The translations under genes and the position numbers were made by a program. A DNA stretch of 5,580 nucleotides from a virus, in IMG/VR virus record IMGVR_UViG_3300045988_003785, one strand, 5' to 3'. Position 1 is the stretch's first letter. Each line of letters starts with the position of its first letter. Below the pieces are notes generated by a model. That model saw nothing but the letters and a program-made list of their open reading frames with translations. It had not been told where the DNA came from and made no database searches. This document shows positions 952 through 5,580 of this stretch, in pieces.

Positions 952-1411
952 TTTCCGAAAAAACGTAACGGCAAAACCAACCGAAGCCGGGGAAAGAGTG
1001 AGACGCACATATCTCTGGGAACGCAACGAAAAAGGCGAAAAGGTACTGAAACTCGACCAAATCATCGACCAGCAAGCGGAAATCGACTCCTACTTGGATG
1101 AAACCAAAATAGAAAACATCATCCGACGGGCAAGCGTCGACCCGAACATCGCGGAACGAATCGCACCGGACTTAGGCGGCGGCATCCAAGACTTTACCGA
1201 GGTGCCGCATACGTTAGCCGAGATTCAAAACGTCATGATTCGCGCAGAACAAATCTGGGACGAAGTGCCGAAAGAAGCAAAGCTCAAATTTGATAACGAT
1301 GTCAATAAATTCATCGCATCGTTTGGCACAGTCGAATGGGCTAAAAATCTGGGTATCTACACCGACGTCAAAACACCCGAAGCGACAGAAGCAACGGAGG
1401 AAAAAGAATGA
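929..1411 (+). CDS. VP3: VP3-like internal scaffolding protein, 160 aa from ATG 929
   Basis: The ORF-track frame is open from 872, but ATG 929 has AGGAG (914-918) upstream, whereas ATG 872 lies deep inside VP5. The C-terminal half (..DFTEVPHTLAEIQNVMIRAEQIWDEVPKEAKLKFDNDVNKFIASF..) fits my memory of the VP3 pattern (D/Y.ea.n....A...F..LP...r..F.NdP..F..f). The stop overlaps the VP1 ATG as ATGA. Confidence 0.65.
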   Translation: MAFRSVSNFRKNVTAKPTEAGERVRRTYLWERNEKGEKVLKLDQIIDQQAEIDSYLDETKIENIIRRASVDPNIAERIAPDLGGGIQDFTEVPHTLAEIQNVMIRAEQIWDEVPKEAKLKFDNDVNKFIASFGTVEWAKNLGIYTDVKTPEATEATEEKE

Positions 1412-3111
1412 ACAGAAACAAAGACGCGGGATTTAACCAAGTACCGCGACTGGACATCACAAGAAGCCGTTTCAAAAGGCGGCAGGACGTCAAATTAACG
1501 CTTGACGCAGGAAAGCTCATCCCATTTTACGTGGATGAAGTATTGCCGGGTGATACTTTCAGCATCGACCAAGCGGCAATCATCCGCATGACAACGCCCA
1601 TCTTTCCAGTTATGGACAACTGCTACATGGACATCTATTATTTTTTCACTCCTAACCGAATCCTTTGGAAAAACTGGAAGCGATTTATGGGCGAGAACGA
1701 TACAGGGCCGTGGGCACAGAAGCGAGAATACACAATCCCACAAATCAGAATCTATGCAGACAGCCGCAATGACGTACCGCTGGAAGGAAGCCTCATGGAC
1801 TACATGGGGATACCGACAAAAGCATGCAAAAAAGGCAATAAAAATACAGAGTTCGAAGTAAACGCACTTCCATTCAGAGCATATGCCATGATATGGCAAG
1901 AGTGGTTCAGAGACCAAAATGTAGATAATCCTGCCATAAACAGCGACGGAGACGAAACAGTAAGCTACTCAGACGTCAACGACGATAACAAAATAGACGA
2001 AATGCTTCAAGAAGCATATCGAGGCGGCAGACCGTTACCAGTCAACAAGTTCCACGACTACTTCACATCGGCAACGCCGAGCCCACAGAAATCGCTAGAA
2101 CCAGTAACCATTCCGCTGACTGGAAGTGCACCGCTAGGAATGTACAGCCCGGCAACAGGAAAAGTAACAATCAACAGCGCCGAAATGAAAAAAATAGCAA
2201 AAGATGCAGGACTGTTGAGCACAGGCAGCACCTTTAACGCCACGGATTGGGACGTCGGAGACGGACCAATAGCAAACCAAGGACTAGCAGTAGGAAGAAA
2301 TACAGGGTCCATATACAGTGGAATAACCTTAGGAGCAGACCTCTCAAAGGTCAACGCAACGACTATAAACCAGCTGCGACAGGCGTTCCAGGTGCAAAAG
2401 TATTACGAAGAACTTGCACGAGGCGGCAGCCGATACCGTGAGATGATTTATTCGCTGTTCCATACCAAAATCAGCGATAAAACCGTGCAGATTCCGGAAT
2501 ACCTTGGTGGTACACGTATCACTATCAACATGAGTCAGGTCATCCAGACCAGCGGCACGACTACTGAGAGTCCGCAGGGTAACACGGCGGCAGTATCCGT
2601 GACGCCGTACAATGGAAGCATGTTTACGAAAAGCTTCGAGGAACACGGCTATGTTATCGGTGTATGTTGCATCCGGCATGACCATACCTACCAGCAGGGA
2701 CTCGAGCGGATGTGGAGCCGCAAAACAAACCTGGACTTTTATTACCCGGTGTTTGCAAATCTGGGCGAACAAGCAATTCTCAAGAAGGAAATCTATCTAA
2801 CCGGCACGGAAACCGACGAACAGGCGTTCGGATACCAAGAAGCGTGGGCAGAATACCGAATGAAACCAAACCGAATCTGTGGCAAATTCCGGAGCAACGC
2901 AACGGGAACGCTGGATAGTTGGCACTACGGCGACAACTACAAAGAAACGCCAAGCTTAAGCCAAGCATGGATGAAAGAAGGAAAAGAGGAAATCCAGAGG
3001 ACGCTAGCGGTAGAAAATGAACCGCAATTTATCATGGACACTATCATCGACAACACAAGCGTAAGACCCATGCCTATGTACAGCATTCCGGGACTCGTCG
3101 ACCATCACTAA
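1408..3111 (+). CDS. VP1: Major capsid protein VP1 (Microviridae F-protein family), 567 aa
   Basis: GGAGG at 1396-1400 with a 7-nt spacer. Hallmark blocks are present: RSRF.R....K.T.DAGKLIPFYVDEVLPGDTF, PIFPVMDN, FFTPNR.LW.NW..FMGE, HDYFTSATPSPQK, TIN.LRQAFQ.QK..E..ARGG.RY.E, IPEYLGG. The size is typical of gokushovirus VP1. Confidence 0.97.
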   Translation: MNRNKDAGFNQVPRLDITRSRFKRRQDVKLTLDAGKLIPFYVDEVLPGDTFSIDQAAIIRMTTPIFPVMDNCYMDIYYFFTPNRILWKNWKRFMGENDTGPWAQKREYTIPQIRIYADSRNDVPLEGSLMDYMGIPTKACKKGNKNTEFEVNALPFRAYAMIWQEWFRDQNVDNPAINSDGDETVSYSDVNDDNKIDEMLQEAYRGGRPLPVNKFHDYFTSATPSPQKSLEPVTIPLTGSAPLGMYSPATGKVTINSAEMKKIAKDAGLLSTGSTFNATDWDVGDGPIANQGLAVGRNTGSIYSGITLGADLSKVNATTINQLRQAFQVQKYYEELARGGSRYREMIYSLFHTKISDKTVQIPEYLGGTRITINMSQVIQTSGTTTESPQGNTAAVSVTPYNGSMFTKSFEEHGYVIGVCCIRHDHTYQQGLERMWSRKTNLDFYYPVFANLGEQAILKKEIYLTGTETDEQAFGYQEAWAEYRMKPNRICGKFRSNATGTLDSWHYGDNYKETPSLSQAWMKEGKEEIQRTLAVENEPQFIMDTIIDNTSVRPMPMYSIPGLVDHH

Positions 3112-3156: not shown

Positions 3157-4035
3157 ATGGGAGTTTTAGCAACACTCGGAACGGGGCTCCTCAAAGCAGT
3201 AGCGCCAAGCCTAATAGGAGCAGCAGCAAATAAACTGTTTGGCACAAGCTCAAGCTACGGACAGCAAGGACAAGCAAACAGTCAAAGCAGTGGCTCAAGC
3301 TGGTCGCAAGGCTCAAGCGACAGCGCAAGTTTCAGCAACGGCGGCACAAACGACGAAATGAACAAAACCATTGCGGCACTAGCAAACCAGATAAGTCAAG
3401 GAAACATGGCCGGACAGCAAAAGTTCAATCGAAATTCGATGCTTATGCAAATGGGATACAACACCTTAGGAGCAATCCAGCAAGGCATATACAACCACAT
3501 CGAACAGCAAACAGCCATGAACTACAACTCAGCAGAAGCCGCAAGAAACAGAGCATGGCAAGAGCAGATGAGCAACACAGCTTACCAAAGAGCCGTCGAA
3601 GATATGCGAAAAGCAGGAATCAATCCAATCTTAGCATACACACAAGGCGGCGCAAGCACTCCAAGCGGAGCGCAAGGAACAATCGGGAGTGCAAGCATGG
3701 GCATGGCATCCAGTAGCGCACTAGGAGCAACAGCGTTACCAGGCATAAAACAAGACGGTAGTTGGAGTAGTCATAGCGAAGCATGGAGTCACGCAGAAAA
3801 CGCAGCAGAGAGCATCCAACAAGCCATCATGTCGAGCAGCTCAAGCCCGGTAAGACTCAAAGGAGACATGGAAGCCATAGCCGAGACGGCAGTAGAAAAC
3901 GCAGCCAAACTCAAAGAAAAATTCGCGGCCTTACCAGTGGCAGACAAAGCAAAAAATGAGCTTGCAGGACGATTAGAAAATACAAGAAGATACTTACCCA
4001 CAGGCTACATGAGCATAAATCCGAGAGGTAAATAA
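3157..4035 (+). CDS. VP2: Minor capsid / DNA pilot protein VP2 (H-like), 292 aa
   Basis: The N-terminus is hydrophobic and Gly/Ala-rich (MGVLATLGTGLLKAVAPSLIGAAANKLFG). The signature block NRAWQEQMSNTAYQRAVEDMRKAGINPILAY is typical of gokushovirus VP2. It sits immediately after VP1. Confidence 0.9.
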   Translation: MGVLATLGTGLLKAVAPSLIGAAANKLFGTSSSYGQQGQANSQSSGSSWSQGSSDSASFSNGGTNDEMNKTIAALANQISQGNMAGQQKFNRNSMLMQMGYNTLGAIQQGIYNHIEQQTAMNYNSAEAARNRAWQEQMSNTAYQRAVEDMRKAGINPILAYTQGGASTPSGAQGTIGSASMGMASSSALGATALPGIKQDGSWSSHSEAWSHAENAAESIQQAIMSSSSSPVRLKGDMEAIAETAVENAAKLKEKFAALPVADKAKNELAGRLENTRRYLPTGYMSINPRGK

Positions 4036-5055
4036 ATGGGATGCAATAAGCCGTTAATTCGGTTTTATGTACCTCATAACAGAGAGGCGAGCGGGCGAGT
4101 ATACACACTCGCCTCTTTTAATAAGATACATAAGACAAACCTTAGGTATGAAGACCTAATGTACAGGAAAGACGTAATGATGATACCATGCGGACAATGT
4201 ACCGGGTGCAGACTACGCAAACGCAAAGACTGGTCAACGCGAATGGAACTAGAAGCATACGGACACAACAAAGAAACCATCTGGTTTATTACACTGACTT
4301 ACGATGATGACCACGTACCAACACAGGACACAGAAACAGGTGAAATCTATAAAGGCGGCATAAACATCTGGAAAGGCACCTCAGAGCGTCCAAGAACGGC
4401 GCAAACGCTGAGCGTAGAGGATACCCAACTATTTATAAAAAGGCTCAGAAAAGCCTTCAAAGAGCCTCTGAGATACTTTTTAGCAGGAGAGTACGGAGAC
4501 AACACAGCAAGACCGCACTATCATATGATACTATATGGATGGCATCCAGACGATTTAAAACCAATCCACAAATTGTCAAGACACGGTCATTATACAAGTG
4601 ATAAACTGGTAAAAATCTGGGGACAAGGCACAGTGGACATAGCGCAAGCAACGCCAGAAACATATAATTATGTTGCAGGGTATGTAACTAAAAAGCTGTA
4701 CGGCAACGACAAAATGCGTTACCAAAAAATGGGTTTAATACCGCCATTTTGCACCATGAGCCGTAAGCCGGGACTCGGGGATAAGTGGTTTGAAGACAAC
4801 CAAGAACGACTCTGGCAACAGGGATACATACAGCTTACCAACGGCAAAAAAGCGGCAATCCCAGAATACTATTGGCGAAAGCTGGAGGCTGAAAACCCAG
4901 AAAAAGCATGGAGAATCAAGAAATATCGACAGCAAAAAGCTATAGCATCCCTAATCGAAAGAAACGCGGAAACCGATAAATCATATGCAGAGCAACTAAA
5001 GGACAAAGAAACATCTATGTCCAAAAAAATGAGAAAAGCCAAAGGCGTATTTTGA
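4036..5055 (+). CDS. VP4: Replication initiation protein VP4 (HUH rolling-circle endonuclease, phiX174 A-like), 339 aa
   Basis: The start abuts the VP2 stop (TAAATG), with GAGGT at 4025-4029. It has PCGQCTGCR (Cys cluster), motif 1 FITLTY (4285-4302), HUH motif PHYHMILY (H-Y-H at 4516-4524), and the two-tyrosine motif YNYVAGYVTKK (Y212 and Y216, nt 4669-4683), as in superfamily-I Reps with the Y-x-x-x-Y spacing. Confidence 0.95.
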   Translation: MGCNKPLIRFYVPHNREASGRVYTLASFNKIHKTNLRYEDLMYRKDVMMIPCGQCTGCRLRKRKDWSTRMELEAYGHNKETIWFITLTYDDDHVPTQDTETGEIYKGGINIWKGTSERPRTAQTLSVEDTQLFIKRLRKAFKEPLRYFLAGEYGDNTARPHYHMILYGWHPDDLKPIHKLSRHGHYTSDKLVKIWGQGTVDIAQATPETYNYVAGYVTKKLYGNDKMRYQKMGLIPPFCTMSRKPGLGDKWFEDNQERLWQQGYIQLTNGKKAAIPEYYWRKLEAENPEKAWRIKKYRQQKAIASLIERNAETDKSYAEQLKDKETSMSKKMRKAKGVF

Positions 5056-5066
5056 GACTTTGGTGT

Positions 5067-5115
5067 CACTCAGCCAAGTAACTATCAAGTAAGCTACTTG
5101 GCTGAGTGTTTTATT
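5067..5115 (+). terminator. Strong hairpin plus T-tract after VP4 (operon terminator; also a stable ssDNA hairpin)
   Basis: CACTCAGCCAAGTA (5067-5080) and TACTTGGCTGAGTG (5095-5108) form a perfect 14-bp stem with a 14-nt loop, followed by TTTTATT (5109-5115). It starts 12 nt after the VP4 stop. Confidence 0.7.
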
Positions 5116-5125
5116 GATTCGTTAA

Positions 5126-5167
5126 ATGCACACGCACGCGCACGTAATCGCGCACGCGCACGTGCAT
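5126..5167. repeat. GC-rich alternating purine/pyrimidine block with a 13-nt direct repeat (CGCACGCGCACGT x2)
   Basis: CGCACGCGCACGT occurs at 5133-5145 and again at 5151-5163, an 18-nt period. Strict R/Y alternation runs over 5126-5146 and 5149-5167. The block is flanked by inverted AATGCAC (5125-5131) and GTGCATT (5162-5168). Confidence 0.85.
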
Positions 5168-5190
5168 TATATTATTATTTTTATTATTAA
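5166..5190. other. 25-nt tract of pure A/T (candidate DNA-unwinding element)
   Basis: ATTATATTATTATTTTTATTATTAA has no G or C for 25 consecutive bases. It sits between the GC block and the TAG repeats. Confidence 0.5.
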
Positions 5191-5197
5191 CTTGTTG

Positions 5198-5212
5198 TAG
5201 TAGTAGTAGTAG
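5198..5212 (+). repeat. (TAG)5 trinucleotide repeat, preceded by (TTG)2; DnaA-trio-like
   Basis: TAG x5 at 5198-5212, read directly, with TTGTTG at 5192-5197. Read 3'->5' each unit is GAT, the DnaA-trio unit described for Bacillus subtilis oriC. The repeat is certain; the function is inferred. Confidence 0.5.
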
Positions 5213-5290
5213 GGAGTGTTGAAATGTTGAATACTATGAATTTTTATCCTTGGAACGATATTTTTTGGCTAATTTTAATGTTGATACTTT

Positions 5291-5299
5291 TGTGGATAA
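5291..5299 (-). promoter_or_regulatory. Perfect match to the DnaA-box consensus (TTATCCACA on the minus strand)
   Basis: The + strand reads TGTGGATAA, the exact reverse complement of the 9-mer TTATCCACA. A second box, TGTGGAAAA (5355-5363), fits the relaxed TTWTNCACA consensus. Binding is untested. Confidence 0.5.
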
Positions 5300-5328
5300 T
5301 TTGTTGAAATGTTGAGAATGTAGCAATA

Positions 5329-5348
5329 TGCACAAAAACCTTTGTGCA
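5329..5348. other. 8-bp hairpin inside the 9-mer array
   Basis: TGCACAAA (5329-5336), loop AACC, TTTGTGCA (5341-5348): a perfect stem. Confidence 0.5.
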
Positions 5349-5407
5349 ACATTTTGTGGAAAACCTGTTGAAAGTGTTGAAAGTGTTGAAAACGCAATTA
5401 GAGGCAG

Positions 5408-5471
5408 TTCGGCAGCTGGCCGAAAAGTCACGTCATGCTCTTCGTACGGCGCACCGCGCCTAGCGCATGAC
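5408..5471. other. GC-rich hairpin cluster upstream of the promoter
   Basis: Three stems: TTCGGC / loop AGCTG / GCCGAA (5408-5424); GTCATGC (5432-5438) paired with GCATGAC (5465-5471); and, enclosed by the second, GGCGC / loop ACC / GCGCC (5448-5460). Confidence 0.5.
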
Positions 5472-5499
5472 CTATCAGAAAAAGTTTCAAAAAAAACTA

Positions 5500-5528
5500 T
5501 TGGCAAATCGACAGTTATATGGTACAAT
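5500..5528 (+). promoter_or_regulatory. Sigma-70/SigA-type promoter with extended -10
   Basis: -35 TTGGCA (5500-5505), a 17-nt spacer, TG at 5520-5521, and -10 TACAAT (5523-5528). An A-rich, UP-like stretch lies at 5479-5496. The predicted start is near 5535 (equivalent to 10), just upstream of the SD and ATG of ORF59. Confidence 0.7.
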
Positions 5529-5580
5529 GCAGATAGTAAAGGAGGTATAAAGATGAGAACTGTCAATCATCTGAGCATCA
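5526..5580. repeat. Terminal direct repeat, copy 2 (duplicates the ORF59 SD and first 9 codons)
   Basis: Identical to 1-55. ATG 5553 corresponds to ATG 28. Confidence 0.95.

Follow-up and report, generated by a model that had tools for sequence, protein, structure and literature searches.

IMG/VR virus record IMGVR_UViG_3300045988_003785 is a 5,580-nt stretch of viral DNA (the window, meaning the whole stretch that was analysed). Its sole large intergenic region (5056-5552), between VP4 and the first small gene, carries ten closely packed TGT(T/G)GA repeats, and the question raised by this locus is which protein reads them, and for what. The window is the complete circular genome of a gokushovirus, a small single-stranded DNA phage, of 5,525 nt with a 55-nt terminal direct overlap (1-55 are identical to 5526-5580); its megablast matches are solely gut gokushoviruses from human, pig and monkey faeces. 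Judging from sequence comparison, the ten TGT(T/G)GAAA repeats are very probably boxes for host DnaA in the dialect of the host lineage, which has TTTTCAACA in place of TTATCCACA. Together with a G-rich spacer, five TAG trinucleotides and an A/T run, they probably form a near-complete phage-borne copy of the Firmicute basal unwinding system (BUS), set beside the putative nick site of VP4.

The repeats start at 5217, 5225, 5279, 5291, 5302, 5310, 5355, 5366, 5375 and 5384, with successive spacings of 8, 54, 12, 11, 8, 45, 11, 9 and 9 nt. An earlier reading of the letters, made without database searches (the sequence-only reading), had counted eight TGTTGA and two TGTGGA in 5217-5392, all on the + strand, with a single further + strand TGTTGA at 2213. 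A motif search agrees on both points, locates the only other + strand TGTGGA at 2711, and finds no TGTKGA on the - strand of 5217-5392. The boxes fall into three clusters:

5217-5233, + strand: boxes 1-2 (TGTTGAAAT, TGTTGAATA), a tandem pair with an 8-nt period that adjoins the TAG trinucleotides (trios).
5279-5318, + strand: boxes 3-6 (TGTTGATAC, TGTGGATAA, TGTTGAAAT, TGTTGAGAA), the middle cluster, which holds the exact E. coli consensus box.
5355-5392, + strand: boxes 7-10 (TGTGGAAAA, TGTTGAAAG, TGTTGAAAG, TGTTGAAAA), the distal array, with periods of 11, 9 and 9 nt.

Local composition does not account for this density. Over 5000 dinucleotide-preserving shuffles, the 176 nt of the array gave a mean of 0.93 motifs (maximum 5) and the 497-nt intergenic region a mean of 0.49 (maximum 5), against ten observed. 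As a look-elsewhere check, the commonest hexamer of each shuffle averaged 3.2-3.4 copies (maximum 9), compared with eight copies of TGTTGA. Two of the ten boxes match the strict DnaA-box consensus (TTWTNCACA / TTATCCACA). One is TGTGGATAA at 5291-5299, the exact complement of TTATCCACA, and the other is TGTGGAAAA at 5355-5363, equivalent to TTTTCCACA, a one-mismatch box that fits TTWTNCACA. Both had been recognized from the letters alone, and the accompanying estimate of about 0.004 exact 9-mers per 500 nt is arithmetically correct. The remaining eight boxes carry C6->A and, where conservation is weak, differ at one to three more positions. Their proposed status as low-affinity DnaA sites stands relative to the E. 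coli consensus only, and not otherwise.

Both the number and the orientation of the motifs are conserved in related phages. VP4-based retrieval from IMG/VR yielded 80 loci, and every locus reaching past VP4 had 7-10 clustered same-strand motifs and 0-1 on the opposite strand, including genomes whose VP4 is only 55% identical to that of the window. A blastn search with the intergenic region matched 52 GenBank gokushoviruses, and several megablast matches to gokushoviruses were restricted to 5277-5395 at 83-87% identity, with nothing else matching among the matches listed; the distal array (5355-5392) is the best-conserved block. Across 119 unique origins, the + strand contains 867 TGTTGA, 155 TGTGGA, one TGTAGA and no TGTCGA, and the - strand 24 TGTGGA, one TGTCGA, one TGTAGA and no TGTTGA. 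The family motif is T-G-T-(T/G)-G-A-A-A-(A/G), near-invariant for T, G and T at positions 1-3 and for G and A at positions 5-6, and less so in its A-rich tail. Its information profile is that of a DnaA box with one difference, A predominating at position 6 of TTATCCACA. In 41 representatives less than 85% identical, the base of the window is kept in 86% of cases in box columns versus 59% in inter-box columns (p = 2e-14). The boxes are conserved islands amid drifting spacers, as expected of protein-binding sites. The middle cluster keeps its four boxes across relatives, with periods of about 11, 11 and 8 nt. The exact E. coli consensus box, to which the sequence-only reading had drawn attention, is indeed present at 5291 but is conserved only in the subclade of the window, other clades having TGTTGAAAA there. 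The first box of the family is TGTTGAAAT, TGTGGAAAA or AGTGGAAAA; TGTGGAAAA, one mismatch from the E. coli box TTATCCACA, is the proximal box in 30 of the 119 relatives.

Beyond the repeats, the locus is defined by four further parts at 5166-5216, immediately 5' of box 1, that the earlier reading had not brought into its account:

5166-5190, unstranded: A/T-only run of 25 nt, candidate DNA unwinding element; the genome's sole A/T run of at least 20 nt.
5189-5197, + strand: AACTTG/TTG, putative VP4 nick site, with cleavage predicted after G5194.
5198-5212, + (packaged) strand: (TAG)5, five consensus DnaA-trios (3'-GAT-5'); the genome's sole run of (TAG)3 or longer.
5213-5216, unstranded: GGAG, a 4-nt G-rich spacer, counterpart of the 'GC cluster' of the BUS.

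The sequence reads '(TAG)5 GGAG TGTTGAaaTGTTGAat', and on the - strand the order is tandem boxes, 4-nt G-rich spacer, (CTA)5 and 25-nt A/T-only run. By comparison with published origins, this composition, order and orientation are those of the BUS of Firmicute oriC. The rules for that system are a DnaA-box pair, a GC-rich region of 4 bp on average, at least three trios and then the unwinding element (PMC8287927). The DnaA-trio consensus is 3'-GAT-5' (PMC8287927, PMC6669920), and single-stranded trios are contacted by domain III of DnaA (PMC6669920). In C. difficile, the trio string 5'-CACCTACTACTATTACTACTATGA-3' lies upstream of the unwinding element and downstream of three boxes (PMC7561715). 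Where the system calls for one or two correctly oriented boxes 0-16 bp from the trios, the phage has boxes at 5217 and 5225, 4 nt off the last trio and oriented as in the bacterial dnaA-dnaN regions. The trio-proximal box has three mismatches to the strict E. coli motif, for which the program rule allows at most two, and one to the host-type motif. The (TAG)5 at 5198-5212 satisfies the rule of at least three trinucleotides with a central A, and GGAG that of a short, G/C-rich spacer of about 4 bp. The A/T run is present at 5166-5190; the 9-nt nick motif AACTTGTTG stands between it and the trios, with its first two bases (5189-5190) still inside the run. The location differs, the module being on a phage genome and not beside dnaA at a chromosome origin; it is a mimic or derivative, not a chromosomal oriC.

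The module is as constant as the boxes. All 119 related origins have four to six TAG trios, 107 of them have a spacer of exactly 4 nt (64% G+C), and the mean A+T content is 79% in the 20 nt that precede the nick motif. The family order 5' of box 1 is an A/T-rich stretch, (T/A)AACTTGTTG, TAG-nnG-TAG-TAG-TAG and the 4-nt spacer, followed by tandem boxes with an 8-9-nt period. As a negative control, about 35 TTGTTGTAGNNGTAGTAGTAG matches on larger viral contigs, where the repeat apparently lies in coding sequence, are followed by 0-2 boxes.

The closest counterparts lie in bacterial chromosomes. A scan of 185,579 species genomes for three TTTCMACA units 0-4 nt apart matched at least 120 contigs, strongly enriched for gut Clostridia (Oscillospiraceae, Ruminococcaceae, Ruminococcus and Acutalibacteraceae). 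All-against-all blastp clustering of the flanking open reading frames (ORFs) gave DnaA (at least 16 loci), DnaN (at least 13), RecF (at least 9) and RnpA (at least 5) as the largest families. NCBIfam profiles matched representatives of DnaA (TIGR00362, 465-498 bits), DnaN (TIGR00663, about 250 bits) and RecF (TIGR00611, 326 bits); RnpA was assigned by eye only. The gene order is dnaA, boxes, spacer, CTA trios, A/T-rich stretch and dnaN, the A/T-rich stretch beside the trios having the same position as phage 5166-5190. TGTTGAAA boxes predominate in the dnaA-dnaN regions of L217, L227, L236, L257, L295 and L300, and with DnaA and DnaN confirmed as flanking genes the motif is in use at the chromosomal oriC of plausible hosts. 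An identical (TAG)5 adjoins the boxes in the dnaA-dnaN regions of L217, L227, L236 and L223, and the place of GGAG is taken by GGGG, GGTA, GGGC or GTGT. In L217, L227, L236 and L257, (TAG)4-5 and the spacer are followed by TGTTGAAAC and TGTTGAAAAC (TGTGGAAAAG in L227, AGTGGAAAAC in L236), a tandem pair that occupies the place of phage boxes 1-2. These origins read 'TAGTAGTAGTAGTAG GGGG TGTTGAaac TGTTGAaaac' in L217, '...(TAG)5 GGTA TGTTGAaac TGTGGAaaag' in L227, '(TAG)5 GGGC TGTTGAaac' in L236 and 'TAGTAGTAATAG GGGG TGTTGAaacTGTTGAaaac' in L257. L257 has about 20 TGTTGA versus one TGTGGA, and some origins, e.g. L223, have TGTGGA only. Position weight matrices from 64 boxes of the six T-type origins and from 1013 phage boxes give position-4 T:G ratios of 0.84:0.16 and 0.85:0.15, A at positions 7-8 of at least 0.88 in both, and a flank correlation of 0.92, an agreement that is partly circular because the bacterial loci were found with a phage-derived pattern and the T-rich ones then chosen. 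Similarity between phage and host origins detected by blastn is limited to modules of 19-36 nt, on which ground recent capture of a host origin was rejected; the phage module appears instead, from its sequence, to represent functional mimicry or an old capture.

The bacterial DnaA proteins differ along with the boxes. In the genomes with TGTTGA-rich origins (n = 6: L217, L227, L236, L257, L295, L300), helix 5 of DnaA reads RDHST(I/V/M)(V/T)(Y/T) and the basic loop A-R-(K/Q), and in those with TGTGGA-rich origins (n = 5: L203, L205, L223, L279, L288) RDHSTVMH and P-R-Q, respectively. The equivalent of His439 is therefore Tyr or Thr in the DnaA of TGTTGA-rich origins. E. coli DnaA makes base-specific contacts through R399, P423, D433, H434, T435 and H439, and in Epsilonproteobacteria positions 435, 438 and 439 are thought to underlie altered box recognition (PMC2533591, PMC5043019). 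L231 is intermediate, with RDHSTVMS in DnaA and an origin containing two TGTTGA and six TGTGGA.

A triple box of about 30 nt, TGTKGAAAACTCTGTKGAAAGTGTKGAAAA, with conserved spacers, recurs at non-origin sites of many Oscillospirales genomes, and the phage distal array (5355-5392) resembles it. It lies upstream of mraZ at at least four loci (L204, L249, L277, L307), in an operon to which we assign the yllB(ftsL) promoter of B. subtilis. It is also found 40-110 nt downstream of tsaD/gcp at at least two loci, with another about 1 kb upstream of tsaD (L252, L317, L225), and near rlmB (L206, L216, L224, L241, L242) and dnaX (L258, L270, L271, L286). Further copies occur in L313 and L315, the latter apparently inside a mutL-like coding region. 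The triple box appears to be a regulon marker or a conserved cluster of DnaA boxes. Stable binding of DnaA is described in B. subtilis for the gcp-ydiF region, a highly conserved cluster 'downstream of gcp', and the yllB(ftsL) promoter of this species is repressed by DnaA (PMC2533591). The variant box is taken to be that of DnaA on two independent grounds: the DnaA proteins differ at residues that touch DNA, and the same triple box at orthologous DnaA sites is hard to explain through another protein. The sequence-only reading had listed sites tuned to a host DnaA of altered specificity among its options, and this option is supported, both by the same variant and T:G ratio at some Oscillospiraceae/Ruminococcus dnaA-dnaN origins and by the differences at DNA-contacting positions of DnaA in those bacteria.

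The AACTTG at 5189-5194, directly 5' of the trios, equals the nick hexamer of phiX174, whose origin reads CAACTTG|ATATTAAT (rep_origin annotated at 4306). AACTTGTTGTAG is the genome's sole + strand ACTTG[AT]T and shares ACTTGTTGTA with phiMH2K. The nine nt at 5190-5198 are 99% conserved in the 41 representatives, and of the 119 origins 92 have AACTTG as the hexamer and 17 TACTTG. The same ACTTG core occupies the loop of a strong intergenic hairpin in Chp2 (tctACTTGatc, L318:2904-2941, z = -6.0), phiMH2K (ccctACTTGttgtaa, core ACTTGTTGTAA, L319:3296-3335, z = -2.7) and SpV4 (attACTTGttata, L320:505-552, z = -5.5). These ACTTG(A/T)T loops look like a conserved VP4 origin whose core is common to phiX174 CAACTTG|A. 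As at a rolling-circle origin, the window has a putative Rep nick motif related to CAACTTG|A on its + strand. It does not have the hairpin: 5165-5235 folds at -0.5 kcal/mol (z = +1.0), and the 70 nt around the nick motif average -2.8 kcal/mol in the family, versus -10.8 to -19.1 kcal/mol for the nick hairpins of Chp2, phiMH2K, SpV4 and L327, a member of a second microvirus clade. The nick motif is absent from the bacterial origins compared, where the A/T run abuts the trios directly, and so appears to have been inserted into the module by the phage.

The second clade (L327, L328, L341, L344) was found with the canonical-box pattern and consists of circular genomes of about 4.7 kb whose VP1 and VP4 are 37% and 30% identical to those of the window. 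Its BUS, just 3' of VP4 (about L327:4200-4300), comprises TGTGGA(T/A)A boxes, GCAT, (TAG)5-6 and A/T-rich DNA; the non-coding (non-packaged) strand carries its trios, opposite to the arrangement in the window. Its ACTTGAT hairpin (L327:3240-3275, z = -5.1) lies between VP2 and VP4, about 1 kb from the BUS. Module and nick site are thus kept apart in this clade and are separable, and the general role of the module in microviruses would be an action of DnaA on duplex DNA.

The role proposed for the module in the window is origin opening: host DnaA probably opens the replicative form at the phage origin. Host DnaA-ATP would bind the same-orientation box array on the double-stranded replicative form and oligomerise toward the trio-proximal tandem boxes at 5217-5233. 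The filament would extend onto the + strand TAG trios, and the duplex would melt across 5166-5197, in a bubble that includes AACTTG|TTG, the likely VP4 cleavage site. Such opening would license phage replication, perhaps by presenting a single-stranded nick site to VP4, by providing an entry for loading of the host helicase, or both. HUH nickases require a single-stranded substrate, so melting would expose the VP4 site; a specific coupling of DnaA opening to VP4 nicking is nevertheless proposed tentatively, as somewhat the less probable case. From the observed motifs, their conservation, the match to bacterial oriC, the altered DnaA residues and the unstructured nick motif, we infer the binding of DnaA to phage DNA, the unwinding, the position of cleavage and their coupling. 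An elaboration with two start modes is unlikely: the DnaA-opened oriC module would serve theta, minichromosome-like replication coupled to the cell cycle, possibly in a carrier state, and VP4 rolling circle would supply the progeny single strands.

Several points weigh against DnaA boxes that open the phage origin. Eight of the ten boxes carry C6->A, at a base that E. coli DnaA needs, so that everything depends on an inferred change of specificity. The covariation with DnaA comes from 11 genomes in about two clades and is phylogenetically confounded, the agreement of the box matrices is partly circular as noted above, and the similarity to host origins is without long homology. The gpA protein of phiX174 acts on an unstructured origin without DnaA, and we know of no cultivated gokushovirus that infects a monoderm Firmicute. 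A search for a prophage or host through the exact VP4 protein found none, exact VP4 occurring only on contigs shorter than 10 kb. The distant nick hairpin of the second clade means that exposure of the nick site cannot be the general purpose of such modules. Finally, C. difficile oriC2 alone is not unwound in vitro without oriC1 (PMC7561715).

Alternatively, the boxes could act as a DnaA sink or switch, titrating DnaA off the chromosome or controlling the nearby early promoter without opening phage DNA. A multicopy replicative form with ten boxes on each copy would be a large sink, the boxes are followed about 110 nt further on by a SigA-type promoter, and isolated triple boxes in bacteria occupy regulatory positions, some upstream of mraZ and others downstream of tsaD; DnaA clusters in B. 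subtilis serve both regulation and titration (PMC2533591). A sink or switch would need the boxes only, however, and leaves unexplained why (TAG)4-6 is invariant, why the spacer is fixed at 4 nt, why an A/T-only run adjoins and why the boxes strictly keep a single orientation. It is by these features that an unwinding module is defined, and a sink or switch is rather improbable as the whole account.

Plasmid R6K has an A-site hairpin at which a DnaA-dependent 'ABC primosome' forms, and the phage module might by analogy be a complementary-strand origin, DnaA on the trios of the packaged + strand building a primosome that converts single-stranded DNA to the replicative form. Trios and all boxes lie on the packaged strand in the family of the window, and domain III of DnaA binds single-stranded trios (PMC6669920). 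DnaA is, however, loaded on trios from double-stranded boxes. The + strand of 5160-5400 shows no significant structure (z = +0.5; 133/200 shuffles fold at least as well), so the boxes would be single-stranded there, and in the second microvirus clade it is the non-packaged strand that bears the trios. Single-strand folding as a source of double-stranded boxes was considered and is unsupported by that fold of 5160-5400 (z = +0.5). A complementary-strand origin is accordingly given little weight.

Iterons bound by VP4 or a small phage protein, like the Rep iterons that flank the nick sites of many rolling-circle replicons, were the third option of the sequence-only reading, which had named VP4 and the ORFans as candidate binders. 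The direct repeats do adjoin the putative nick site, and the small ORF products have no assigned function. The repeats are nonetheless not specific to the element: the same motif, spacing and trio context are found at bacterial dnaA-dnaN, and at tsaD and mraZ, in chromosomes that lack phage genes, and phages with VP4 proteins 55% identical share an unaltered motif. Position 4 of the box tolerates no variant other than G, and G there restores the DnaA consensus. This option is disfavoured and is regarded as very improbable.

Binding by another host regulator is less credible still. The consensus sites are TGTCGAA for Spo0A, TGTWAH-N5-TGTWAH for WalR and GTGG repeats for MraZ. TGTTGAA is one base off the Spo0A box, some periods are 11 nt, and at least four triple boxes lie upstream of mraZ; none of the three regulators would explain the trios or the dnaA-dnaN location. 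Spo0A boxes were rejected on the absence of TGTCGA among 1023 + strand TGTNGA. WalR-type repeats were rejected since position 5 is G in 1022 cases versus A in 45 (44 TGTTAA, one TGTGAA) and periods of 8-9 nt are common. An MraZ operator was likewise discarded, the phage motif being GTTGA and not GTGG, and B. subtilis DnaA itself regulating the mraZ-equivalent promoter. A functionless origin of the repeats, by composition, slippage or as part of a coding sequence, has next to no probability and is effectively refuted by the shuffles (about one motif versus ten), by box conservation amid drifting spacers and by a frame survey, even though a called 134-aa ORF spans 5328 onward in the closest relatives and a 9-nt period could encode a tripeptide repeat: a frame of at least 100 codons runs through the last box in only 3-6.5% of 107 origins, and the 8- and 11-nt periods break frame.

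With host DnaA boxes in an unwinding module retained as the preferred reading, the remainder of the genome provides its setting. The long ORFs are all on the + strand and include VP1 (1408-3111), VP2 (3157-4035) and VP4/Rep (4036-5055). Precomputed Pfam matches of identical proteins are Phage_F (VP1), REP_ORF2-G2P (VP4), Chlamy_scaf and Phage_ORF5; NCBIfam profiles run on VP1 and VP4 matched no family. The other features of the intergenic region are as follows:

5067-5108, + strand: terminator-like hairpin after the VP4 stop, with 17-nt arms that are 94% complementary (-16.2 kcal/mol, z = -6.1), then TTTTATT.
5125-5168: imperfect palindrome of alternating purine-pyrimidine CG/CA (AATGCACACGCACGCGCACG / CGCGCACGCGCACGTGCATT), directly 5' of the A/T run.
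5329-5348, + strand: small hairpin (TGCACAAA / TTTGTGCA), an inverted repeat between the middle and distal clusters.
5500-5528, + strand: sigma-70/SigA-type promoter of the first gene (TTGGCA, 17-nt spacer, TACAAT preceded by TG).

The terminator-like hairpin is context and lies outside the origin module. The palindrome at 5125-5168 folds no better than dinucleotide shuffles (z = +0.4), and its position is taken in most relatives by a GC-rich palindrome or hairpin whose sequence varies; candidate roles are an unwinding barrier, a Z-DNA-prone tract or a complementary-strand origin. The segment with the small hairpin (5296-5362) folds with z = -2.2. This inter-cluster hairpin changes by clade (TGCACAAA-AACC-TTTGTGCA versus CGTCA-AAA-TGACG) with its position kept; a conserved inverted half-box, CAACATTT, comes after it. 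Two GC-rich hairpins (5408-5471; z = -1.4) separate the last box from the promoter, one GTTCGGCAGCTGGCCGAAC-like and the other GTCATGC...GCATGAC. GTCATGCTCTTCG(T/C)ACGGCGCACCGCGCC is kept in one large subgroup of relatives, and other GC-rich hairpins replace it elsewhere; these hairpins are likewise a candidate complementary-strand origin. An Rfam search gave no match near threshold. Downstream of the promoter are AAAGGAGG and then the ATG at 5553 (position 28 when numbered on the circle). Public gene calls include an ORF of 134-150 aa that starts inside the box region, passes over the circle junction (window 5328 to 207) and continues into the first gene, of 59 aa, and the same ORF is called in the closest relatives (L348-L353) at 4293-4697. 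It is a read-through artefact, its frame not being held open across the family, as are minus-strand ORFs of 110 aa and 40 aa.

The SigA-type promoters with extended -10 and the strong AGGAGG ribosome-binding sites are consistent with a Firmicute host, and the box dialect TTTTCAACA points to an Oscillospiraceae or Ruminococcus-like monoderm Firmicute as candidate. Such a host group would be new for cultivated Microviridae. The hosts of gut Microviridae are largely unknown, a prediction having been obtained for 3/33 in one study (PMC12291355), and origin mimicry could provide a sequence-only handle on the host of a phage. If the preferred reading is right, a rolling-circle nick site has been wired into the unwinding module of the host initiator, and phage replication would be tied to the DnaA-ATP level and hence to growth state. 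The pairing of a C6->A box with a His439->Tyr/Thr DnaA in abundant gut Clostridia is also relevant to oriC predictors that assume TTATCCACA.

The trio-spacer-tandem-box signature, with more TGTGGA boxes, also occurs in IMG/VR contigs of 8.8-162 kb (L321-L326, L329-L340, L342-L343, L345-L347). Judged by eye, these encode phage-like proteins, including an endolysin-like protein (L339) and clamp- and nuclease-like ORFs (L323); no DnaA-like ORF was seen among those flanking the seven larger-contig elements examined. The elements may be DnaA-dependent origins of double-stranded DNA phages or phage-plasmids, and together with the second microvirus clade they raise the possibility that phage copying of the host unwinding module is widespread.

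Literature searches, with most subscription journals outside their reach, returned no relevant paper on DnaA in gokushoviruses or Microviridae or on DnaA-trios in phages, and no description of TTTCAACA/TTTTCAACA boxes with a His439 change in DnaA. Taken singly, DnaA boxes, trios and Microviridae nick sites are all known features; the literature searched does not describe them together on a single-stranded DNA phage, and within it this would be the first such phage with both DnaA boxes and DnaA-trios.

Among known systems, the replicons P1 oriR, pSC101, F and RK2 have host DnaA boxes flanking their own initiator site, thought to aid opening or helicase loading. They are theta replicons with Rep iterons and one to few boxes, whereas the phage partner is an HUH rolling-circle nickase with a whole BUS; to our knowledge, no DnaA-trios have been described for them. 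E. coli datA is a DnaA-titrating locus. It and the DnaA-box clusters of B. subtilis (PMC2533591) share with the phage dense boxes outside oriC, but without trios or an adjoining unwinding element. The 30-nt gpA origin of phiX174 (CAACTTG|ATATTAATAAC...) and the origins of Chp2, phiMH2K and SpV4 have in common with the window the ACTTG core, the intergenic + strand location and an A/T-rich neighbour. Unlike in Chp2, phiMH2K and SpV4, the nick site of the window is without a hairpin; unlike in any of the four, it is set at the junction of A/T run and trios of a DnaA module. Species-specific DnaA boxes include TTTTCCACA in cyanobacteria and a 12-mer in Thermotoga. The Epsilonproteobacteria, with TCATTCACN and an obligatory T5 (PMC5043019), likewise show a lineage-wide change at one position together with changes in helix 5 of DnaA domain IV (435, 438, 439); the variant here differs in being C6->A (TTTTCAACA) with His439 replaced by Tyr/Thr, and canonical TGTGGA is mixed in at about 15%. 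B. subtilis incC (boxes 6/7, GC cluster, trios, A/T) and C. difficile oriC2 have the same elements in the same order and orientation as the phage module. Unlike these Firmicute systems, the phage module sits on a 5.5-kb single-stranded DNA phage and not beside dnaA, has a nick motif between A/T run and trios, keeps nearly all its boxes in one orientation, and has no second (oriC1-like) cluster. The near-identical match to the phage module is found in the dnaA-dnaN regions of Oscillospiraceae and Ruminococcus.

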